Shown here: positions 1-61,803 of the stretch, piece after piece
Position numbering within the stretch: the first letter of the stretch is position 1
Layout of the letters: each line of letters begins with the position of its first letter
Virus record (IMG/VR): IMGVR_UViG_2974626280_000001
Location: 1 to 64,000 of that record
Source: a virus
Lineage: Duplodnaviria; Caudoviricetes
Strand: one strand, 5' to 3'
DNA: 64,000 nt
Notes under the pieces: model-generated
Databases searched by the model: none
Seen by the model: the letters and a program-made list of their open reading frames with translations, nothing else
What the model was told of the DNA's origin: nothing
Made by a program: the position numbers and the translations under genes

Positions 1-180
1 ACTTAAAAAAAATACAGTGAATTTATTTTTAGACTACCTTCTACATAATCGAAATTTGTAGTTATTTAGGTTACTACGGTTATTTAAATACAGAACAGGT
101 ACTTAGAGAATATCCGAAAAATAACCAGCGGCTAAATTCCGGTTATTATCCTTTGCGGCAATCACCTCTAGGTTATTTTC
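1..180. repeat. AT-rich non-coding element with GGTTAT/ATAACC boxes; diverged copy of 17785-17935
   Basis: GGTTA(T/C) or ATAACC boxes at 69, 78, 121, 141 and 171. ACTTAGAGAATATCCGAAAAATAAC (101-125) matches ACTTACAGAATATCCGAAAAAATAAC (17906-17931). Confidence 0.75.
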
Positions 181-286
181 GAAGTACACTAGCGATGCGC
201 ATCCAGTACACGCTTCACCTCGTTCACCACCCATCTACCCGCTCTGAGCAGTGTCCACCAGCTTGCATTTATACACCACAACGGTG

Positions 287-316
287 TTGACGCATCCACC
301 AGCAGCGGCGTATAAT
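287..316 (+). promoter_or_regulatory. Sigma70-like promoter upstream of putative terS
   Basis: TTGACG-N18-TATAAT. Confidence 0.75.
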
Positions 317-356
317 TACACCAGGCATCTTTAACCATTCACACAGGCGATTTCTC

Positions 357-839
357 ATGAGTGCATCAGGAATTCTTTTACCAGAAGATTTTGAAGACTA
401 TAACTTTGCGCTCAATAACAAAGAGCACTTTGACAAATACATTGATATGATCATTAAGGGCTACGACGAGACAACCGCACTACGTGTAGTCTTCGGCGAA
501 GAGGCTTGTTCAGACGGAGGCTTCTGGGCGCGCATTTATGCTATTCGCCGGAATCGGTACTACAATCAGCAGTACCAACTTGCACTACAGAATATCAAAC
601 TGGAAGAGCTTTGGAATCCTCGCTTAGCCATTACGATGCTGCTCTTAATCGCACGCTCCAGTGAGAAACATTCTGCGCGTATTAACGCAATCAAAGAATT
701 GAATATCATGACAGGTATTACAGTGATGGACGAGGCTGGTAACACAAAACAGGGCCGGAGCATGGAAGATTTCTACGCGAAAATCCAGGAATCAGCCGAT
801 TCGCACTACCCACCAGCAAACGGCACTACCAAGCACTAA
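357..839 (+). CDS. terS: Putative terminase small subunit
   Basis: 160 aa. The helical SARINAIKELNIMTG segment resembles TerS oligomerisation motifs, and no other TerS candidate is present in the window. Motif recognition only. Confidence 0.55.
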   Translation: MSASGILLPEDFEDYNFALNNKEHFDKYIDMIIKGYDETTALRVVFGEEACSDGGFWARIYAIRRNRYYNQQYQLALQNIKLEELWNPRLAITMLLLIARSSEKHSARINAIKELNIMTGITVMDEAGNTKQGRSMEDFYAKIQESADSHYPPANGTTKH

Positions 840-856
840 AATTACACAAGCTTTCA

Positions 857-896
857 GGGGTAGGCGCGGCGAATCCATACTAAGCTGCCCTACCCC
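857..896. terminator. Hairpin between convergent genes
   Basis: GGGGTAGG...CCTACCCC inverted repeat just after the terS stop. Confidence 0.45.
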
Positions 897-937
897 ACCA
901 GTTTCGCACTACAACCCACGAGAATGCCACCTATTGG

Positions 938-1225
938 TTATAGTACATAACGACGAATCCACACTATACCTTTCGCACTAAGGTTAAACTCTTCCACACT
1001 AGCGTCATGCCCATTATCGAAGACAACCTGACCAGTGTCCCTGCGTAACCGCCAGCAGAAGTCCATAGTGACCAGATTCGCACTATTAAGCGCAGAGCCT
1101 TTCAGCCAGCCATAGTCGCAACCCGTACTATCCGCATAAAGCTCTAACCGTCCACCAGCGTTATCGGGTTGCACTAGGACTGGCTCATTAGCCACCAGCG
1201 CGGCCACCAGCAATAGACTCTTCAT
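938..1225 (-). CDS. Hypothetical exported protein
   Basis: 95 aa, hydrophobic N-terminus MKSLLLVAALVA, one Cys pair. Confidence 0.65.
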   Translation of the reverse strand: MKSLLLVAALVANEPVLVQPDNAGGRLELYADSTGCDYGWLKGSALNSANLVTMDFCWRLRRDTGQVVFDNGHDASVEEFNLSAKGIVWIRRYVL

Positions 1226-1431
1226 CCGACAATCCGCACTATACCGCCTCGACGGGCAATCCGGTCAAAGAACGAATCGCGGAAGCTGAAGTCATCTTGC
1301 ACTACGACGACAGAGCGCTTAATCTGCTCCGCTACAACGTCCAGCTTTTGCACTACAGGCTTATTCAGGTTCAGGCCACCAGCGGCCTCAACCATCATGC
1401 GCTCATAATCTGCACTATTAAGCTCTTTCAT
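1222..1431 (-). CDS. Hypothetical protein
   Basis: 69 aa; 4-bp ATGA overlap with the downstream gene. Confidence 0.65.
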   Translation of the reverse strand: MKELNSADYERMMVEAAGGLNLNKPVVQKLDVVAEQIKRSVVVVQDDFSFRDSFFDRIARRGGIVRIVG

Positions 1432-1480
1432 AATGTTCTCCAGATGTGAGAAAAGGCCGGATAACCCGGCCCGATTTGCA

Positions 1481-2017
1481 CTACACGATTTCGAAGCGGT
1501 ACGCGACGCCTACCCAATCGAACACCGCCACTTTCGCTTCCTTAAGCTTCATGCGGAACCGGATGTGCTTGCTGTCCGGCAGGTTAAGCGCGGTAAACGC
1601 AGCTCTAACCGATTTAAACTCTTCTTCCTTATCGCCCCATTTAACGATAACGCCGTTGCGGGTCATGCGGGCTTCAAACACCTTCTCATTGCCCCAGCTC
1701 GCCTTAATCCCTTCGGAGTTCGATTTCCGCTCGCTGGTCTTCTCTTCCACCAGCTCGCTTTTAACCTTCGCTTCAAATTCTTCGTCGGTCATCGCGTCGT
1801 AATCCGGCGCTGGCTCTTCGGCCTTAACCGGGCGCGGAGAGTGGACTACTACCGGGCGGACATTATCATCTTCCCAGGCCAGCGCGTTAACCAGCGCCGT
1901 TACGCGTTTTTCGGCGGTAGCGCGGTCAGCGAACTTCTTAACCGGTTTTTCGCTATGGAGGTTGTAAAACTCCACCAGCTCCTTCGTAGAAGCGGTTGCG
2001 ACGTCGATGGTGTTCAT
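1481..2017 (-). CDS. Early hypothetical protein (178 aa)
   Basis: ATG at 2017 follows GAGG and a consensus promoter, so the ORF-track start at 2050 is probably too long. Confidence 0.8.
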   Translation of the reverse strand: MNTIDVATASTKELVEFYNLHSEKPVKKFADRATAEKRVTALVNALAWEDDNVRPVVVHSPRPVKAEEPAPDYDAMTDEEFEAKVKSELVEEKTSERKSNSEGIKASWGNEKVFEARMTRNGVIVKWGDKEEEFKSVRAAFTALNLPDSKHIRFRMKLKEAKVAVFDWVGVAYRFEIV

Positions 2018-2048
2018 AGCTAAATCCTCATTTCGTTTCGATAAATAC

Positions 2049-2077
2049 ATTATAGGTGAACCGTGTATTAAAGTAAA
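2049..2077 (-). promoter_or_regulatory. Early promoter PE1
   Basis: GCTTTACT-N17-TATAATGT. Confidence 0.85.
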
Positions 2078-2151
2078 GCACTTTCTTAAAATATTTTCGA
2101 AAAGATGGAAAGTATTTTAAGAAGCCCGGTTATCGTTACCGGGCGGAACGG

Positions 2152-2352
2152 TTAGCCGAAGAGGATAGCCTCTAAGACTTCGGCGGCGTCTTCCTTCGAT
2201 GCATGTTTAGAATCGAGGTGCCATACATATTCGCCGTAATGGCGGGTATAGATATAGACCTTTCCTTCGTCTTCGGTTTTACGAACCATCTTACCCTGTA
2301 GGCTGGAGATAGGACGCTGGTACACTTCGTTAAGGTTAAGTTTTCGAGCCAT
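2152..2352 (-). CDS. Early hypothetical protein
   Basis: 66 aa with its own promoter, GAGG RBS and a downstream hairpin (2124-2144). Confidence 0.75.
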   Translation of the reverse strand: MARKLNLNEVYQRPISSLQGKMVRKTEDEGKVYIYTRHYGEYVWHLDSKHASKEDAAEVLEAILFG

Positions 2353-2385
2353 CTTTCTATACCTCGTTTTCGTTTCGATAAGTAC

Positions 2386-2413
2386 ATTATAGATGAGCGA
2401 CGAAAAAAGTAAA
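2386..2413 (-). promoter_or_regulatory. Early promoter PE2
   Basis: GCTTTACT-N16-TATAATGT. Confidence 0.8.
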
Positions 2414-2467
2414 GCATTTTTTCGACATTTTTATTTAAATTATTTTCGAAAAAATGAGAGATTTTTC

Positions 2468-2496
2468 TTTACTTCCATCTTAGCCTATCTTATAAT
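2468..2496 (+). promoter_or_regulatory. Early promoter PE3
   Basis: TTTACT-N17-TATAATGT. Confidence 0.85.
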
Positions 2497-2550
2497 GTAT
2501 CTCATAGGGCGACGGAATAGACCGAAGCCGAAACGAACGAGGATTTAAAG

Positions 2551-2835
2551 ATGGCTAAACTAACCGCTACCGAACTCGCTAACGCGTCCGCTTTCTTCGC
2601 TGGCGAGTACGTTCCTTACGCTTCCCTACTCGCCGCTAACGTGGGCGTTAAAATCGGCGAAGAAATCCCCGCCGAAGTAGTAGGAGATTTCGGTTTCGAC
2701 GACGAAGAAGGTGCGTATCTCGATACCGTCGACGGGCGCGAAATCCGGGTTATCGAAACCGAACTTTACGTAGCCGCCGAAGACGTAGCGACCGGAGAAG
2801 TTGCCTTCTTCGCCCTCGAAGAAATCGAAGAATAA
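2551..2835 (+). CDS. Very acidic early protein (candidate DNA mimic or anti-defence protein)
   Basis: 94 aa, 22 D/E versus 4 K/R; GAGG RBS and own promoter. Confidence 0.8.
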   Translation: MAKLTATELANASAFFAGEYVPYASLLAANVGVKIGEEIPAEVVGDFGFDDEEGAYLDTVDGREIRVIETELYVAAEDVATGEVAFFALEEIEE

Positions 2836-2873
2836 AAAGATGTAAATATTTCGGATAAAGTGAGAAATAAAGC

Positions 2874-2902
2874 TTTACTAGTCGGACACTTTATCCTATA
2901 AT
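2874..2902 (+). promoter_or_regulatory. Early promoter PE4
   Basis: GCTTTACT-N17-TATAATGT. Confidence 0.85.
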
Positions 2903-2960
2903 GTTTATATCGGAAGGGGAAATGAACCTCTTCTACCTAACCTAAAACGAGGACTTAAAA

Positions 2961-3227
2961 ATGACTAACATGACTAAAGAAATTATCGCTATCCTGATGG
3001 CTTCTAAAACTAACGAAGGTGTTGCGTTCTCCGAAATTACCGGCCATGTCCGCCTCGTCGTCGATAACACCGAAACGTCCGAAGTTGCGAGCCTCATCGT
3101 TACCGGCTTCGTTCCTAACCTCGACGACGATATGGACGACGAATTAGCTCCGGTATGGTTACATAAATATTCTTTCGGATGGATGCTCGGACTCGATAAC
3201 GGCGACCAGTACGCTATCCTTAACTAA
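2961..3227 (+). CDS. Acidic early hypothetical protein
   Basis: 88 aa with DDDMDDE tract; GAGG RBS. Confidence 0.8.
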   Translation: MTNMTKEIIAILMASKTNEGVAFSEITGHVRLVVDNTETSEVASLIVTGFVPNLDDDMDDELAPVWLHKYSFGWMLGLDNGDQYAILN

Positions 3228-3246
3228 AAATACACAGCCTTACATT

Positions 3247-3270
3247 AGCCTCGCTTATAGCGGGGCTTTC
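3247..3270 (+). terminator. Intrinsic terminator
   Basis: AGCCTCGC-TTATA-GCGGGGCT followed by TT. Confidence 0.6.
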
Positions 3271-3386
3271 GTCGTTCTATCCCCTTCCTCCGCTATACCC
3301 TCTCTTAGAAAGTGTTCCCTTGGTTAATGTTGTTATGTCGAATAATAACGCTCGTTAATTATATCTTCGCCGCGCTGTCGCGTCCG

Positions 3387-3592
3387 GTATAGTTAGGACG
3401 GAGATAGTTTGAGGGTTAATGGTATGGGAGCTAATTGTTACGGTCGGTGATGGTTAGCTGACGAATGATTATGCTGCGTATTGTATGTTGCGTAATTGTT
3501 AGGGCGCGAATGATTACGGTGCGTGATGGTTTGCTGACTAATCATTAGCCTTCTAATTACAAGCGAAATAATGGTTAGTGCGCTAATCATTG
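3387..3592. repeat. Non-coding tandem array, 14 units of 15-16 bp
   Basis: 9-bp cores (consensus TAATNRTTA) start at 3387, 3402, 3417, 3432, 3448, 3463, 3478, 3493, 3508, 3524, 3539, 3554, 3569 and 3584, separated by 6-7 bp mostly GC-rich linkers. Confidence 0.9.
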
Positions 3593-3683
3593 AGTGTGCC
3601 CTTGACCGCGATTTAGTACCTGGTCCAATTTCACAGTACACTAATCAGAATTCCATCACGTAGGCGCGGCCAAGAACAATCAA

Positions 3684-5700: not shown

Positions 5701-7515
5701 TTATCGATAGAGCGGTATGTATGCAACCTTACCATTTCTGTCCAGAATTTGCATGTATTCCGCTGGCGCTGCCGTACTGGATGGCGTACCCGGAGGAGAG
5801 GATAGCTGGAGTACCCCGCCTGCGGCCCCTACGCCAGCGCCGTTGGCGTGCTTGGCAAAGCGATACTCTGGCAGCCTGATAGGGTTTTCGCCAGCCGCTG
5901 CCACAGGCTCGTTGGCAGATTTGGTGCCGTCTTTCAGGAACATGGACGGCGTTCCGGCGTCCTGACGGTTTACGCCGTTGCTGTACACGTTGACGTCGAA
6001 CCGTCCACACCACTGCGGCAGCTTGATCCACAATTTGACGTAGGTGTTGTAAGGTGCCTGATAGCGGATGTCGGTGACTCCTGCCATGCCTTCGTGACTG
6101 GCCGTGACGATAGGTTCATTGCCAGAGCCGCGCTGGATTTTGATCGTTGTCTTGCCCGGTTCGCCGTTGCGCTCGATAGTTGGACTTGCGCCAGCGGAGC
6201 TATAGCCGTTTTTGGCGTGGATATCGACTTCCCATTGCTGGCCTACGGACGGTGAGAAGAATTGACCGATGCAGACCCAGGTGGACGCGCTGGTGTTGTT
6301 ATCACCGTGCAGCGTGCCGCCCTGAAACAGTACGCGGATAGGCTGTTCAAAGCTGGTGGCCTGAGCCGATTCGGTGATGTAACCGTCTTCGTAGTTGCTG
6401 AGCCAGCGCTGCTCTGGCGTACCACGAACGACCGCGCCGCCCGTTTGCAGCTCAATGTTGTGCTTGCCGCGCGTACCCTTCAAGTTGAGAGGGAACTTGC
6501 TGGACTCGATGGACAGTTTGTGGATATCCCAGCCGCCGTTGCTCAGGTCGCCAGGTCCGTTGGAGTGCTCAATCCAGAGGTTACGAATCAGCGACTGCGT
6601 GCAGCGCGGCATGTTCAGACCGTTATCCGACAGCATGTACTGCAGGTTGCCGTTGGTGATTTCGACCGCCGTTGAGTGGTCCCACTTGCCTTGCGGGTCA
6701 TTAGACCAGAGGATGCGAATGAAATCGTCGTAAATACGGTTGCAATAAATCTGGTCGAAGTGAGTGTCCAGAGTATCGAGTAAATCGAAAACGATGCCGC
6801 CGGAGTTGATTGCGCGGAAGCAGCTCACGTTGACGAACTGACCAGCCGTTTCGACGTTGGCGAAGAAAGGTTGCTTGTTACTTGGCGTGGTGAAATTCCA
6901 GCGCATACCGCCATCGGTGATGGTGGAAGTCGCCTGACCATCCCACTCGATGCCCTGAATGGCGAAGCGACGCGCGGAGCACTTGATCACTGGGGTATCT
7001 GACTTATCCGACACAATTCGCGTCTCCGGCATCAGGCCGAAGTCGACGCGCGGCCCGGTGAACTGAAGGTAGTCGATTTCGGCGGTGCCGTAGTCGTAAG
7101 GCGACACGAAACTGACGCCTGAAGGGAACTTAACGCCGATACGACGCGCCATGCGGTGGTTGCCGTCGATGTTCCGACCGTAGTTGAACATGCGTAAAAC
7201 GGCTGGCAGGTCGTCGTTGATGCCGTCCATGTACGCGCCGAAGTGGGTGATGTTGATTTCGTCGCTGAAGCTGGAGCAAATGCGCTCCCAGTGGAACTTG
7301 TCGCCAGCAGCGTGCATACCGCCGTCGTCCGCGCCGCTGGTCAGGTGGCCCAGGAAGTAACCGCCGCCAGCCGGGTTGCCTGCCAACAGGTGATAGCTGG
7401 AGAGGTAAAGGATTTGCCCTTCAAACTCTGGCTTTCGGGTGCGGAGAGATTCGAAAGATGAAGCAGTGATTGCCTTTTGCAAATCGGACGTTTCAAGAAT
7501 CGTTTTGAGTTCCAT
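5701..7515 (-). CDS. Tailspike-fold polysaccharide (EPS/capsule) depolymerase
   Basis: ~604 aa from the ATG with GAGGG RBS. Tailspike N-domain motif LRTRKPEFEGQILYL...GGGYF, DGINDDLPA beta-helix start, and WDHSTAVEITNGNLQ/PRCTQSLIRNLWIEH segments recalled from Erwinia-phage/AmsF-WceF-type enzymes. Confidence 0.7.
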   Translation of the reverse strand: MELKTILETSDLQKAITASSFESLRTRKPEFEGQILYLSSYHLLAGNPAGGGYFLGHLTSGADDGGMHAAGDKFHWERICSSFSDEINITHFGAYMDGINDDLPAVLRMFNYGRNIDGNHRMARRIGVKFPSGVSFVSPYDYGTAEIDYLQFTGPRVDFGLMPETRIVSDKSDTPVIKCSARRFAIQGIEWDGQATSTITDGGMRWNFTTPSNKQPFFANVETAGQFVNVSCFRAINSGGIVFDLLDTLDTHFDQIYCNRIYDDFIRILWSNDPQGKWDHSTAVEITNGNLQYMLSDNGLNMPRCTQSLIRNLWIEHSNGPGDLSNGGWDIHKLSIESSKFPLNLKGTRGKHNIELQTGGAVVRGTPEQRWLSNYEDGYITESAQATSFEQPIRVLFQGGTLHGDNNTSASTWVCIGQFFSPSVGQQWEVDIHAKNGYSSAGASPTIERNGEPGKTTIKIQRGSGNEPIVTASHEGMAGVTDIRYQAPYNTYVKLWIKLPQWCGRFDVNVYSNGVNRQDAGTPSMFLKDGTKSANEPVAAAGENPIRLPEYRFAKHANGAGVGAAGGVLQLSSPPGTPSSTAAPAEYMQILDRNGKVAYIPLYR

Positions 7516-10100: not shown

Positions 10101-11501
10101 ATGTATCAACTGAATCCTGCGCTAAGAGATGTTTGGAACACTAAAGCACGCTACAAGGTTGTGTATGGTGGCCGTGCATCTTCCAAGTCGCATGATGCAG
10201 CAGGTTTCGCCGTATTCCTTGCAGCCAACTTCCGGCTGAAGTTCCTTTGCGTACGTCAATTCCAGAATAAAATTTCGGAATCGGTTTACACGCTCCTCAA
10301 AGACAAGATTGAAAACTCTGAGTTCAAGGACGAGTTCAACTTGTTAAAGAACAGTATTGAGCACAAAGTTACCAAATCTGAATTCCTTTTCTACGGTATC
10401 GCACGCAACGTTGACGAAATCAAGTCAACGGAAGGTGTCGACGTTCTCTGGCTCGAAGAAGCGCACGCACTTACTGAAGAGCAGTGGGACATCATTGAAC
10501 CAACAATCCGTAAAGAAGGCAGTGAGATTTGGATAATCTTTAACCCGGATGAAGAAGCTGATTTTGTGTATCAGAATTTCATCGTGCGCCCTAAAAAGAA
10601 TTCTATCGTCAGAAAGATTAATTGGCAAGAGAATCCTTTCTTATCGCAAACGATGATTGACGTTATCAAGGACATGTACGACCGCGACCCGAAAAAGGCA
10701 GAGCACGTGTATGGCGGAGAGCCGAAGACTGGCGGCGACAAGTCTGTTATCAACCGCGCATTCGTCAAGGCCGCGCTCAACTTGCACAAGCACCCAACCA
10801 AAGGTTGGGAAGCAACCGGAATGCGCCGAATCGGCTATGACGTAGCGGACGACGGCGGAGACGTCAACGCAATGGCGAAAGGCGTTGGGAACGTGCTGCA
10901 AGTCATCGAGACTTGGGAAGGGCTTGAGGATGAGATGCTCAAGTCAGCCGCGCGTGTCTACAAGTCAGCAAAAGAGCTGAATGCTACAGTGACATATGAC
11001 TCCGTCGGTATCGGCGCGGCCATCGGCTCGAAGTTTTCTGAGTTCAACGAAGACAACCCAGGCGGGTGGCAGATTGAATACGACGCATTCAACGCTGGTG
11101 GGCGCGTTCACAATCCTGATGACGTTTACCTTGAGCTGCCGCACGTTAAGATTCTTAACAAAGACCACTTTTCTAACGTTAAGGCTCAAAAGTGGGTAGA
11201 GGTTGCAGAGCGCATGCGCGCATCTTTCGAATACCTCAACGACCCTAACGCCAACCCGGATAACACCGACGTGTCTGAGCTTTGCTCAATCGATACTGAA
11301 GGATGGACTGAAGAAGAGATTGAGCAATTTCTCTTTGAGATTTCTGCGCCGAGAAAAGATATCGACCGAACCGGGAAATTCAAGGTGGAATCCAAGCCTG
11401 ATATGTTAAAGCGCGGCATCAAATCCCCAAACAAGGCTGATGCCGCTATCATGTTTTGGATGAAGCCTATGCGCGCAGCAGCAGGATTCTTCGACTTTTA
11501 A
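10101..11501 (+). CDS. terL: Terminase large subunit (PBSX-like)
   Basis: Walker A GGRASSKSH, Walker B LEEAH, nuclease motifs GYDVADDGGD and NKADA. Start taken as MYQLNP. Confidence 0.92.
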   Translation: MYQLNPALRDVWNTKARYKVVYGGRASSKSHDAAGFAVFLAANFRLKFLCVRQFQNKISESVYTLLKDKIENSEFKDEFNLLKNSIEHKVTKSEFLFYGIARNVDEIKSTEGVDVLWLEEAHALTEEQWDIIEPTIRKEGSEIWIIFNPDEEADFVYQNFIVRPKKNSIVRKINWQENPFLSQTMIDVIKDMYDRDPKKAEHVYGGEPKTGGDKSVINRAFVKAALNLHKHPTKGWEATGMRRIGYDVADDGGDVNAMAKGVGNVLQVIETWEGLEDEMLKSAARVYKSAKELNATVTYDSVGIGAAIGSKFSEFNEDNPGGWQIEYDAFNAGGRVHNPDDVYLELPHVKILNKDHFSNVKAQKWVEVAERMRASFEYLNDPNANPDNTDVSELCSIDTEGWTEEEIEQFLFEISAPRKDIDRTGKFKVESKPDMLKRGIKSPNKADAAIMFWMKPMRAAAGFFDF

Positions 11502-17670: not shown

Positions 17671-17965
17671 ACACAGGTTATTTTTTGGTTATTCGAATAA
17701 TCCTTTCAAATCATAGGAATAACCGGAATAACCAAAATAACCAAGTTTTTCCGAAACTCTTAAGGTAAGCCGAAAAAAATAATAAATTGACTACAAAAAA
17801 ATAGAGTTATTTTATTATTTTTTTAGACTATCCCCGTATATCTCAAATTTTATGGTTACGGAAGTTATTTGGATATTTTACACTAATAGTTGCGGCAACT
17901 CAGCCACTTACAGAATATCCGAAAAAATAACTTAGGATATTTTTTCTAGTACACAGGTTATTCTC
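17671..17965. repeat. AT-rich non-coding locus with iteron-like boxes
   Basis: GGTTATT at 17676 and 17687; AATAACC x3 at 17718, 17727 and 17736 (9-bp period); ACACAGGTTATT direct repeat at 17671 and 17951. Confidence 0.8.
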
Positions 17966-39306: not shown

Positions 39307-39858
39307 TCATTTCGCCTCCACCAGCGGCATTTTGCCATCCTTCATTCGACTTGGCATGGGATAATACATCATTTCGTATTGACCAGAATCATCGGTTTTA
39401 TAGAACATGATTACGTCTTTACTGGCTAACAGCAAGTGGACGATATCTTGTCTGTCTTCAGGGTTTACGATAAACACGGACTTGTCCCCGTTATCCCCTG
39501 GCGCGGCACTATATGTGCGGTCGATGATTCCCTGATCAAATGTATTATACCGTATCAGTACAGTTAAGTCTTTAGAATCTTTAATCTGTTTGTCGGTATC
39601 GAAATAAACGAAGTCTTTTCCACCGTTTTTCCTGATGCAAAATAGTTCGTCCTTGAACCGTTTGGCGGTAACGTTATACGCCTGAAAGCAATACATGAAG
39701 CTATTGCCTGAGTCGAAATATTTATAAAGTACAGCAGTTTCATCGTTTGGTGGATTGAACATAGCAGGCTGGTCATCCTGCGCGACGGCGACCGTGGCGG
39801 CGGTCGTAACTAACAGAGCGGTCAATGCCGCTGCTTTCATAATATCAATCGGACGCAT
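39307..39858 (-). CDS. Hypothetical exported protein
   Basis: 183 aa; signal peptide MKAAALTALLVTTAATVAVA. Confidence 0.75.
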   Translation of the reverse strand: MRPIDIMKAAALTALLVTTAATVAVAQDDQPAMFNPPNDETAVLYKYFDSGNSFMYCFQAYNVTAKRFKDELFCIRKNGGKDFVYFDTDKQIKDSKDLTVLIRYNTFDQGIIDRTYSAAPGDNGDKSVFIVNPEDRQDIVHLLLASKDVIMFYKTDDSGQYEMMYYPMPSRMKDGKMPLVEAK

Positions 39859-55152: not shown

Positions 55153-56040
55153 TCAGTCGTTATCGAAGCGCTGAACGGATTCGTCATCTTCAAAAGTGTC
55201 GGCGTCACCGTCTTCAACTTCTGGCTGCCCGGTCTGATCAACGGTGTGGAACACCAGGTGACCCATCTCTTCCAGCTTGCTCAGGTAAGAGCGGACGCTT
55301 GCGCCGTACAGCAGGCCTTTCACTTCTTCGCCGAACTCGTCGATGTTGATCAGTGTGCCATCGCTGTATTTTTCACGAATCACCGCCAGCACTTTGCCGC
55401 GCGTTGAGTGCTCCTGCGGGTTCGACAGACCTTCGCCGGTATACTGGAAGTGGGTCGATTTGGTACGGCGGCCACCTTCAGCTTTCTTAGCAGCTTTACG
55501 CTCTTCCAGGATGGCACGGCGCTCTTCGGCTTCCTGCTTACGCGCAGCCTTATCGGCTTCGGCCTGCTGACGTTTCGCTTCACGCTCAGCATCACGCTCA
55601 GCTTTGCGGTCCGCTTTAGCCTGATCACGTTCAGCCTTTTTAGCAGCTTTCGCTTCTTCACGCGCCTTAGCACGCTCTTCAGCCTGCTCAGCTTTAGCAG
55701 CTTCGCGCTCAGCTTTCTTGGCTTCTTTCTCTTCTTCACGCTGCTTAGCGCGTTCAGCTTTAGCGGCTTCACGCTCTTCAGCTTTAGCAGCTGCTTTAGC
55801 TTCGCGCTCTTTGGCTTTCTCTTCAGCCTGAGCTGCGCGCTTCTCTTCCTTCTCCTGCGCCTTAGCAGCGCGGGCATCGGCCTGTTCCTGACGCTTGGCT
55901 TCGCGCTTGGCTTCAGCTTCTTTACGCGCTGCTTCACGCGCTTCAGCCTTTTCCTGGCGCTCTGCTTCACGCTTAGCGCGGCGCTCCGCTGCTTCAGCGG
56001 CTTTCTGTTCTTTCGATTTAACCTGGATTGGTTCGCTCAT
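55153..56040 (-). CDS. Charged single-alpha-helix protein with a C-terminal winged-helix-like domain
   Basis: About 175 aa of A/E/K/R repeats, then STRGKVLAVIREK...SVRSYLSKLEEMGHL. Confidence 0.75.
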   Translation of the reverse strand: MSEPIQVKSKEQKAAEAAERRAKREAERQEKAEAREAARKEAEAKREAKRQEQADARAAKAQEKEEKRAAQAEEKAKEREAKAAAKAEEREAAKAERAKQREEEKEAKKAEREAAKAEQAEERAKAREEAKAAKKAERDQAKADRKAERDAEREAKRQQAEADKAARKQEAEERRAILEERKAAKKAEGGRRTKSTHFQYTGEGLSNPQEHSTRGKVLAVIREKYSDGTLINIDEFGEEVKGLLYGASVRSYLSKLEEMGHLVFHTVDQTGQPEVEDGDADTFEDDESVQRFDND

Positions 56041-61503: not shown

Positions 61504-61803
61504 ATGAATATTGGCATCTTATATGGTAGAGATATCAATGAAGAATCTGAAGACGCAGAAGTGGCGGCAAGTGTCTATGATGCTGATCAAGTGCTCTTTG
61601 TGGACGAGATTACGCTTGAGACTCTTGCGGGCGTCAAGTCCGAAACAGGTTGCAAGACAGAGACTGTTCTTGTGGTTACTAATGATGATCTGTCTGATAT
61701 GGGTCTGCTCCGCCGCCTGTATGCAGGATGTCTTCAACTTGCATTCGTTCAGTCTGTGAGCAATCTTCGCGCTAACTACCGCGATATGTATCAGATTAAT
61801 TAA
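61504..61803 (+). CDS. Hypothetical acidic protein
   Basis: 99 aa; GAGG RBS. Confidence 0.65.
   Translation: MNIGILYGRDINEESEDAEVAASVYDADQVLFVDEITLETLAGVKSETGCKTETVLVVTNDDLSDMGLLRRLYAGCLQLAFVQSVSNLRANYRDMYQIN

Follow-up and report, generated by a model that had tools for sequence, protein, structure and literature searches.

The principle that phage genomes are selected for Chi sites is already published, for phage P1 (2021) and for temperate lambdoid phages (2025). Lambdoid phages in which the Rec module is missing carry Chi sites in large number, co-oriented and clustered at an end, and their growth is better with RecBCD (PMC12315714). The LLS class of these phages (Zheng, Casjens, Davidson, Amundsen and Smith 2025, PMC12315714) has no recognisable recombinase or RecBCD inhibitor and carries the enteric Chi in near one-way orientation, clustered toward the end that is open to RecBCD; its members are temperate cos phages of 29–58 kb, with 8–25 Chi sites distributed over many kilobases near the right cohesive end. 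For P1, Chi sites near the terminal repeats were proposed to serve RecBCD/RecA-dependent circularization (Subramaniam and Smith, bioRxiv 10.1101/2021.07.08.451572). In P1 and its relatives, recombination of the terminal repeats by RecBCD, Chi and RecA would bring injected linear DNA into a replicable form, with no phage substitute for the host functions; P1 packages by headful from pac, has variable ends and carries 50 Chi sites on both strands over tens of kilobases. Phage T5 is virulent and has long exact repeats (10 kb) and, by simple count, two Chi sites per repeat copy and a strand bias of 7:1 over its whole genome, but it has only these two sites per repeat, which are oriented toward the right end and lie 1.5–2.1 kb from it.

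The phage analysed here, a virulent myovirus of 70 kb, has fixed repeats of 3.6 kb and, inside the repeat, nine Chi sites in 1.7 kb. It displays the one-orientation excess and end clustering of the LLS class but not the lambdoid organization with cohesive ends; it would resemble that class in its working while being no member of the lambdoid group. In contrast to P1, its ends are fixed and its array is compact and faces one end only. What is new here is a compact, one-sided Chi array in the fixed direct terminal repeat (DTR) of a virulent myovirus; no mention of Lindbergviridae Chi arrays was found in the literature searched.

A compact Chi array in the left terminal repeat

The window, by which we mean the whole 64,000-nucleotide stretch that was analysed, is the first 64 kb of the 73,168-bp genome of a Kylevirus-like myophage (Lindbergviridae) that has direct terminal repeats of 3.6 kb and encodes a tail sheath and a Pol III-type polymerase. 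It contains the following repeat and Chi features.

1–3603, no strand: left copy of the DTR, 3,603 bp, found by self-BLAST at 100% identity over 3,603 bp
255–1979, minus strand: array of nine Chi sites (GCTGGTGG read on the minus strand), active for RecBCD coming from the left genome end
299–306, minus strand: Chi-like word GCTGCTGG with one mismatch, oriented as the array; a variant motif proposed for Enterobacteriaceae (PMC8022716)
895–902, minus strand: Chi-like word ACTGGTGG with one mismatch, oriented as the array
1049–1056, minus strand: Chi-like word GCTGGCGG with one mismatch, oriented as the array (PMC8022716)
4518–4525, minus strand: isolated Chi in the array orientation; further such sites at 39318 and 57484
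6352–6359, plus strand: Chi oriented for RecBCD coming from the right end; the sole other such site in the genome is at 11094

Exact copies of CCACCAGC start on the plus strand at 255, 296, 810, 1152, 1192, 1204, 1376, 1747 and 1972, the same nine positions that an initial annotation of this DNA had listed. That annotation had also put the chance expectation at about 0.03 per strand and the number of Chi sites elsewhere in 62 kb at about five, and both figures agree with our counts. With the unique part of the genome as training sequence, Markov models (orders 1 to 4) predict 0.02–0.06 copies per 1,725 bp per strand where nine are found (Poisson P < 1e-17), and the window outside the array holds five more (4518+, 39318+, 57484+, 6352− and 11094−). 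Dinucleotide shuffling predicts 1.67 sites for the window, which has 14 in total, a number that none of 100 shuffles attained. When all strand-specific octamers of the genome are ranked by their maximum count in any 1,725 bp, CCACCAGC comes first. Chi sites cluster at the left end (Kolmogorov–Smirnov P = 5e-7) and are biased by strand: the non-redundant genome has them at 13:2 (binomial P = 0.007), virion DNA at 22:2. Within the array they are irregularly spaced (12–514 bp) at ~24 times the E. coli density, and the one-mismatch Chi-like words in the DTR are likewise all on the array strand (3 of 3). Purines at 3′-flank positions 4–7 raise Chi activity in E. coli but are not site-defining (PMC5041463); across 25 sites from five phages, we found no enrichment of purines in the 3′ flank (49 of 100 positions).

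Between the left DTR boundary and the array lie 254 bp, and the array does not extend past the first 55% of the repeat. The record is assigned to the DTR class in IMG/VR, CheckV giving it a completeness of 100, and the right copy occupies genome positions 69566–73168, beyond the window. Both DTR boundaries are homologous to the PhageTerm-predicted boundaries of the relative Mansfield (DTR 1–3673), and the physical end is accordingly placed at position 1 from the record together with the PhageTerm-predicted ends of relatives. Assembly wrap-around was rejected as the origin of the repeat, whose length and two boundaries match the PhageTerm-predicted DTRs of three relatives. A DNA end somewhere left of ~255 had been postulated in the initial annotation, and the left boundary of the exact 3,603-bp DTR at position 1 meets that expectation. 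The accompanying claim, that the sites are active for RecBCD coming from low coordinates, also stands: the strand that ends 3′ at position 1 carries GCTGGTGG, and the 3′ side of the octamer faces the left end. Because the array is inside the DTR, a second copy is present at the right end, in an orientation inactive for that end. From the right genome end, there is no correctly oriented Chi over 62 kb.

Gene context and host Chi

The array is interleaved with genes and with a second repeated motif.

287–316, plus strand: predicted sigma-70-type promoter, near-consensus (TTGACG, 18 nt, TATAAT; 11 of 12 matches), upstream of terS
357–839, plus strand: terS, small terminase subunit gene, containing the Chi at 810
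477–1483, plus strand: fourteen GCACTA boxes on one strand, interleaved with the Chi array; a separate phage-specific motif
938–1225, minus strand: gene with no assigned function, containing the Chi sites at 1152, 1192 and 1204; 65% amino-acid identity in PA1, weak in WFC
1222–1431, minus strand: gene with no assigned function, containing the Chi at 1376; 53% amino-acid identity in PA1
1481–2050, minus strand: phrog_4730 gene, containing the Chi sites at 1747 and 1972; kept in PA1, WFC, MTx and MyoSmar

The assignment of terS draws on a profile of seven homologs that matches PDB 7UXE, the TerS of Pseudomonas phage E217 (E = 1.3e-70; PMC9611059), on a match to phrog_4783 and on a Mansfield ortholog annotated as terS. 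Two of the Chi sites are intergenic, and the one at 296 falls in the spacer of the predicted promoter. The site in terS is read on the plus strand as Pro-Pro-Ala; the three minus-strand genes hold the other six, which are read in two frames, as Ala-Gly-Gly and as Leu-Val. The earlier observation that the sites occupy differing reading frames therefore holds, with intergenic DNA, a plus-strand gene and minus-strand genes all carrying them.

We infer the host's Chi specificity from a single Pantoea replicon, on which the octamer is enriched, and from published work on the wider family. Plasmid pPag3 of Pantoea vagans (530 kb) has 136 copies of the octamer and 27 of a reversed control word (~five-fold); the octamer's density there, about 1 per 4 kb, is ~20 times below that of the array. 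Chi has been reported to be conserved across nearly all Enterobacteriaceae (PMC8022716).

These data bear on the explanation that codon usage or base composition produced the cluster incidentally, or that it is captured host DNA. The codon pairs CTG-GTG and GCT-GGT are common in enteric bacteria and the plus strand is C-rich in the array region (GC skew −0.16), as such an origin would have it. GC content is not higher locally (0.506 in the array region, 0.498 in the genome), the sites are intergenic or sit in plus-strand and minus-strand genes in three frames, and fewer than 0.06 of them are predicted by Markov models of order up to 4. Host DNA as the source is opposed by the ~20-fold lower host Chi density and by the genes themselves, which are phage genes kept across the family. 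We rejected composition, codon bias and captured host DNA on the Markov expectation, these conserved phage genes and the in-place conservation in PA1 described below, and regard an origin of this kind as scarcely credible.

Conservation of the octamers in relatives

The phage belongs with the enteric-host Lindbergviridae (Kylevirus, Wifcevirus and Myosmarvirus), sharing their terminase and their ~3.6-kb DTR with terS inside. TerL is 79% identical in PA1, 75% in Wifcevirus and 67% in Myosmarvirus. The Myosmarvirus phages MTx and MyoSmar and the Wifcevirus phages WFC and Mansfield resemble it in having a DTR of ~3.6 kb whose left boundary is roughly 0.4 kb away from terS; DTR lengths are 3,603 bp here, 3,673 in Mansfield, 3,566 in MTx and 3,559 bp in MyoSmar.

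Pantoea phage PA1, with ~61% identity to the array region, has seven Chi sites within 1.6 kb, and the remainder of that strand has none. It holds 6 of the 9 octamers in place, compared with 6.4% of background 8-mers (P ~5e-6), and the flanks vary. In the Serratia phages MTx and MyoSmar, the corresponding part of the DTR contains four co-oriented Chi sites per phage, whose orientation to terS and the end is also the same. In these two relatives, the ones with annotated boundaries, the array likewise stays within the first 55% of the DTR. Since the octamers are kept in place in diverged relatives, sequence comparison has shown selection to act on the octamers themselves.

Wifcevirus, whose hosts are E. 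coli, has a similar DTR and gene layout but a single Chi in the repeat, 647 nt after the terS start. A search for a Wifcevirus anti-RecBCD gene that might explain the single Chi recognised none: the genus has ~35 small specific genes without a homolog in the present phage, and 20 of these gave no informative PHROG match. That this sister genus manages with one Chi and no recognisable anti-RecBCD gene counts against the model presented below.

Relatives with Pseudomonas-like or unknown hosts showed no comparable Chi cluster. The Pseudomonas Chi-like octamer GCTGGCGC occurs in phage JG024 with 2 of 3 copies just 3′ of terS in the matching orientation, its counts being equal to those of the control, and the same host-tracking test with GCTGGCGC in Xanthomonas phage XcP1 revealed nothing. 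A single-protein terS search of viral contigs returned no match; a terS profile search of viral contigs returned 38 loci, among which Chi arrays beyond Myosmarvirus were not found.

The comparison also addresses whether the octamer is instead bound by a protein of the phage or the host, such as a terminase, a replication initiator or a regulator, with its identity to Chi a coincidence. The array does sit amid other repeated motifs near terS and the terminus, and the alignment pairs a Chi of one phage with a GCACTA box of another phage at three positions. These boxes are kept in PA1 and Wifcevirus and absent from Myosmarvirus. An identical 8-mer with variable flanks and irregular spacing recurs in two genera whose TerS proteins are ~40% identical and whose other motifs differ. 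The cluster is absent from relatives on non-enteric hosts, and the chance that an arbitrary octamer would be Chi in the active orientation is ~1 in 65,000. A protein-binding role with coincidental Chi identity is thus very improbable.

A proposed role for host RecBCD and RecA

The initial annotation had recognised no recombinase or Gam-like gene in this DNA, and the dedicated searches gave the same result. Six-frame searches of the genome with eight Pfam families (RecA, RecT, ERF, Rad52, Sak4, lambda Gam, Mu Gam and YqaJ) yielded no match, and PHROG scans of ~50 phage proteins revealed no recombinase, exonuclease or RecBCD inhibitor. The phage does encode an endonuclease VII-like protein and UvsW-like and Dda-like helicases, and a novel RecBCD inhibitor or recombinase may be present among its many small ORFs of unassigned function. 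Because nine end-facing Chi sites lie within 2 kb of the genome end, the phage probably uses the RecBCD/RecA repair machinery of its host in place of recombination genes of its own.

On the sequence evidence, we consider it likely that the nine octamers work as Chi sites and are under positive selection, halting RecBCD before it leaves the DTR and causing RecA to be loaded on DNA with homology to the opposite end. What we infer in this model is the action of RecBCD, the loading of RecA and what recombination then yields. The substrate would be the linear, non-permuted DNA of a virulent Kylevirus-like myovirus with a 3.6-kb direct repeat at each end. Host RecBCD would load on the left double-strand end, either after injection or after terminase has cut replicating DNA, and would encounter nine correctly oriented Chi sites 254 to 1,979 bp from that end. 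A single Chi is recognised in only part of such encounters, roughly 20–40%. At that rate, nine successive sites would raise recognition to 87–99% while RecBCD is still within the repeat, making recognition nearly certain before the enzyme leaves it. After recognition, RecBCD would spare the 3′-ended strand and put RecA on it; as the array occupies the first 55% of the repeat, the RecA filament would always span at least 1.6 kb identical to the repeat at the other end. Strand invasion at the other repeat copy would regain the DNA lost from the end and could also give rise to a circle or a head-to-tail concatemer to serve as substrate in replication and packaging. The host pathway would thereby replace a recombinase and a RecBCD inhibitor of the phage's own. 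As there is no right-facing Chi for 62 kb, the model requires the right end to be closed to RecBCD.

Two other readings also take the sites to be real Chi. The array might act late, as in lambda, with terminase cutting the concatemer at the repeat boundary and holding the capsid-bound end, RecBCD entering at the free left end and the array protecting or recombining the remaining concatemer; the infecting genome would then not be the relevant substrate. The one-sided 22:2 orientation mirrors that of lambdoids, in which terminase holds one end and Chi faces the other (PMC12315714), and the array surrounds terS and adjoins candidate packaging signals. However, if terminase binds beside terS and packages rightwards, the left end would be occluded rather than exposed, and with one repeat per concatemer junction and a cut at the right repeat boundary, the resulting end would start beyond the array. 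We therefore hold late action to be possible but doubtful.

Alternatively, Chi recognition might serve protection only, turning off RecBCD degradation at the exposed end, with RecBCD-dependent CRISPR spacer capture confined to the terminal 0.3–2 kb as a side effect and RecA recombination dispensable. The orientation of the sites and their nearness to the end agree with this, and Chi-dependent protection of linear plasmid multimers is established, but that protection needs RecA (bioRxiv 10.1101/2021.07.08.451572). Protection as such would also favour sites nearest the end, whereas the array here and in MTx and MyoSmar extends within the first 55% of the DTR, a confinement that is the prediction of a homology-dependent outcome. 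Protection without recombination is, in our assessment, unlikely, and RecA loading within the repeat for recombination with its other copy is the reading that we prefer.

Discussion

A more far-reaching version of the preferred model would make host RecBCD and RecA obligatory replication or maturation factors of the phage instead of a danger to it, and the array the dedicated start of recombination-dependent concatemers; the polarity would mean that only the left end is ever exposed, and a protein would have taken the array's place in the E. coli sister genus. We offer this version tentatively and think it rather less probable than not. If it were true, the three genera would form a natural series for a phage trading a DNA signal against a gene.

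The array extends Chi selection to a family of virulent myoviruses with fixed terminal repeats, and does so in the cleanest geometry so far: the end is 254 bp from a compact array that lies wholly in the repeat, with homology supplied by the other copy, and most octamers are kept in place at 61% background identity. The system opens to test the need of a lytic phage for RecBCD and RecA, which end is exposed and why one Chi suffices in the E. coli genus. For annotation, Chi polarity may indicate physical genome ends. The Chi signal could also help to predict phage host range among enteric bacteria, and in phage engineering, recoding of the terminal repeat could cripple the phage.

A Chi array at the left end of the genome

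The window is bases 1 to 64,000 of one single 73,168-bp virus record, and near its left edge lies a dense run of exact matches to Chi, the RecBCD recognition octamer.

Chi array (pattern search)
255, 296, 810, 1152, 1192, 1204, 1376, 1747 and 1972, plus strand: exact CCACCAGC octamers (GCTGGTGG on the minus strand)

The search recovered all nine sites listed in the initial annotation and, where that annotation had noted about five others, counted exactly five further copies of CCACCAGC in the 64-kb window, both strands together. With models of order 1 to 4 trained on the remainder of the genome, the Markov expectation that had been proposed as a check came to 0.02–0.06 copies per strand in 1,725 bp; dinucleotide shuffles give 1.67 copies for the whole window. 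By maximal count in any 1,725-bp span, CCACCAGC tops all strand-specific octamers of the genome, and Chi is clustered at the left end (Kolmogorov–Smirnov P = 5e-7). At 5.2 sites per kb, Chi is ~24 times as dense in the array as in E. coli, and the region is not GC-rich (GC 0.506 versus 0.498). The intergenic and mixed-frame placement described earlier also held: two sites are intergenic, one of them within the spacer of a sigma-70-type promoter close to consensus (287–316). Of the other seven, a plus-strand gene has one, and three minus-strand genes share six, which use two reading frames. The Chi-bearing genes are kept as proteins in a diverged relative.

The array lies within a fixed terminal repeat

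The first 3,603 bases of the record recur exactly at 69,566–73,168 as a direct terminal repeat (DTR); the record is listed as DTR-type in IMG/VR and rated complete by CheckV. The genome encodes a large terminase, portal, tail sheath, Pol III-type polymerase, helicases and primases. In its large terminase the phage shares 79% identity with Pantoea phage PA1 (Kylevirus, Lindbergviridae), 75% with E. coli Wifcevirus phages and 67% with Serratia Myosmarvirus phages. The initial annotation's putative terS, the open reading frame at 357–839, does encode a small terminase: a seven-homologue profile matches TerS of Pseudomonas phage E217 (E = 1.3e-70), whose structure has been solved (PDB 7UXE; PMC9611059).

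PhageTerm, working from sequencing reads, predicted DTRs at 1–3673 in the Wifcevirus Mansfield and at 1–3566 and 1–3559 in the Myosmarvirus phages MTx and MyoSmar; in all three, terS starts ~0.4 kb from one DTR boundary. Both boundaries of the 3,603-bp repeat align with those of Mansfield: the two records open with similar bases, and the sequence adjoining the right DTR boundary (3603) on its outside is nearly identical to that at the PhageTerm-predicted boundary of Mansfield. Assembly wrap-around was considered as a source of the repeat and ruled out, as it would not give this length and these boundary positions. Because DTR length and boundaries match the PhageTerm-predicted ones of relatives, a fixed double-strand end is predicted to sit 254 bp left of the first Chi site, and boundary homology with Mansfield thus bears out the DNA end that the initial annotation had placed left of ~255. 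The array fills 255–1979 of the DTR, and 1,624 bp of repeat remain past the last site.

The array faces the left end only

The strand on which RecBCD reads 5′-GCTGGTGG-3′ is the one whose 3′ end lies where the enzyme enters, and the octamer is reached from its 3′ side (PMC12315714). Because the minus strand ends 3′ at the left end and carries GCTGGTGG at nine of nine array positions, the array is predicted to be active for RecBCD entering from that end. Its copy in the right-hand DTR has the wrong orientation for entry at the right end, for which the nearest correctly oriented Chi is at 11094, 62 kb off. The non-redundant genome has 13 Chi sites in the orientation of the array and 2 in the other, virion DNA 22 and 2, and the one-mismatch Chi-like words in the DTR (3/3) fall on the active strand. 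We looked around the Chi sites for the flank preference known from E. coli Chi and did not see it.

Retention and turnover of Chi sites in relatives

PA1, ~61% identical to this phage over the array region, carries seven Chi copies within 1.6 kb, none elsewhere on the same strand and one on the other. In pairwise alignment six of the nine octamers are kept base for base with differing flanks, whereas 6.4% of the other 8-mers in the region are kept (binomial P about 5e-6). Sites have turned over as well as been kept, since three are specific to this phage and one to PA1. In MTx and MyoSmar the corresponding part of the DTR holds four Chi sites per phage, in the same orientation relative to terS and the nearest end, and CCACCAGC ranks with the commonest octamers of that region. 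No Chi cluster was found in viral-metagenome relatives, nor in phages of Pseudomonas and Xanthomonas that share this terS.

E. coli Wifcevirus is the exception among enteric-host relatives: its DTR and gene order are as here, yet it has one conserved Chi site. None of ~35 small Wifcevirus-specific genes is recognizable as a RecBCD inhibitor, twenty of them having been scanned against PHROG with no informative match. These ~35 genes are without counterpart in this phage, and the early regions beside the right DTR (genome 64500–69500 versus Mansfield 61000–67640) have no detectable homologues in common.

Companion motifs and other repeats

Repeated elements near the array and elsewhere
Window 477–1483, all on the same strand: 14 GCACTA boxes, context TTTGCACTA, interleaved with the Chi array
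Genome 69446–69743 (window 1–178 plus 120 bp before the right DTR): GGTTATT/GGATATT iteron element, mirror arrangement
Window 17676–17963, between head genes at 17.7 kb: 74%-identical paralogue of the iteron element
Window 2049–2902, divergent, inside the DTR: four near-identical promoter-like blocks (TTTACT, 16–17 nt, TATAAT)

The equivalent region holds ~10 GCACTA copies in Wifcevirus, ~13 in PA1 and none in Myosmarvirus (MTx and MyoSmar). Because Myosmarvirus has the Chi cluster without these boxes, sequence comparison indicates that the two motifs are independent of each other. A Chi site in one phage aligns with a GCACTA box in another at three positions, as might be expected if the octamer were the binding site of a phage protein; its exact identity with Chi across genera that differ in TerS proteins and companion motifs makes that reading unlikely, and we retain Chi as the identity of the octamer. 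The GCACTA boxes may be TerS or end-processing sites. The iteron element spans the junction of unique DNA and DTR, from about −120 to +178 round the left terminus, so that the terminus falls inside it; both motifs adjoin the Chi array and are candidate terminase or replication signals.

A fifth promoter-like block precedes terS (287–316). The DTR resembles an early region read by host RNA polymerase. Elsewhere, the commonest octamer of the genome, AGCGCGGC, is evenly spread (for example 1197, 4784, 6603 ... 63237), with 22 plus-strand copies against 10 of its complement. TCAGCTTT, CTTCACGC, TTAGCAGC and GCTTTAGC each occur five to seven times at 55478–55965, inside the minus-strand gene 55153–56040 (phrog_4765), whose product appears to be an internally repetitive protein.

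Host Chi signal and phage recombination genes

Pantoea vagans plasmid pPag3 (530 kb) contains 136 copies of the Chi octamer, ~1 per 3.9 kb, against 27 of the reversed control word. A survey of Proteobacteria reports that Chi is kept in almost all Enterobacteriaceae, taken in the broad sense (PMC8022716). This enrichment and the family survey point to the same octamer as the putative Chi of the host RecBCD.

Six-frame searches of the whole phage genome returned no match to RecA, RecT, ERF, Rad52, lambda Gam, Mu Gam or YqaJ, and the Sak4-type family gave nothing beyond a P-loop match below threshold, located within a Dda-like helicase. Among ~50 proteins scanned against PHROG and Pfam there were a ligase, helicases resembling UvsW and Dda and a protein similar to endonuclease VII, and no recombinase or RecBCD inhibitor; many small open reading frames have no assigned function. 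Both approaches uphold the earlier impression that no recombinase or Gam-like gene is recognizable.

A model for RecBCD at the left end

We propose that RecBCD would load at the exposed left end and be converted at one of the nine Chi sites before leaving the DTR. On the assumption that a Chi site is recognized in 20–40% of encounters, the computed total recognition for nine sites is 87–99%. RecA would then be loaded onto a 3′-ended strand identical to the DTR at the opposite genome end. Invasion of that other copy, on the same or a sister molecule, would regain the bases lost from the end; it would also yield either a circle or a one-repeat head-to-tail junction, the usual precursor of replication and packaging in phages with terminal repeats. 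A rival reading takes the relevant left end to be one made by terminase on concatemers instead of the end of the infecting genome. A homology-dependent outcome as proposed here would predict an array limited to the first half of the DTR. This confinement holds here and in MTx and MyoSmar, the two relatives with annotated DTR boundaries; the PA1 record is circular, with boundaries unannotated.

In lambdoid phages that have no Rec module, Chi sites are numerous, share one orientation and cluster at the RecBCD-open end; RecBCD improves the growth of one of these phages (Zheng and colleagues 2025, PMC12315714). For P1, Chi near the variable terminal repeats has been proposed to serve RecBCD/RecA-dependent circularisation (Subramaniam and Smith, bioRxiv 10.1101/2021.07.08.451572). 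By analogy, the present array may work like these cases. However, this phage is not lambdoid but a virulent myovirus with fixed ends, it lacks the headful packaging of P1, and its array is compact, wholly inside the DTR and facing one end only.

Two more distant phages also carry Chi or Chi-like octamers. In phage T5 (NC_005859.1) the eight Chi sites are biased 7:1 to one strand; each 10-kb terminal repeat holds two of them, 1.5–2.1 kb from the right end and oriented for right-end entry. According to its record, T5 DNA goes into the cell left end first. JG024 (Pbunavirus) has two of its three copies of the Pseudomonas Chi-like octamer GCTGGCGC at 61613 and 62690, 1–2 kb downstream of terS, in an orientation matching this array, with counts too few to judge.

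Full-text searches on the genera, and on Chi with terminal repeats, returned no account of this array. What is new is a compact, one-sided Chi array in the fixed DTR of a virulent myovirus; the principle is already known from lambdoid phages and P1. The strict one-sidedness of the array predicts that right ends would be closed to RecBCD, held for example by terminase, capsid or a tail protein, in parallel with lambda, in which terminase occludes one end.
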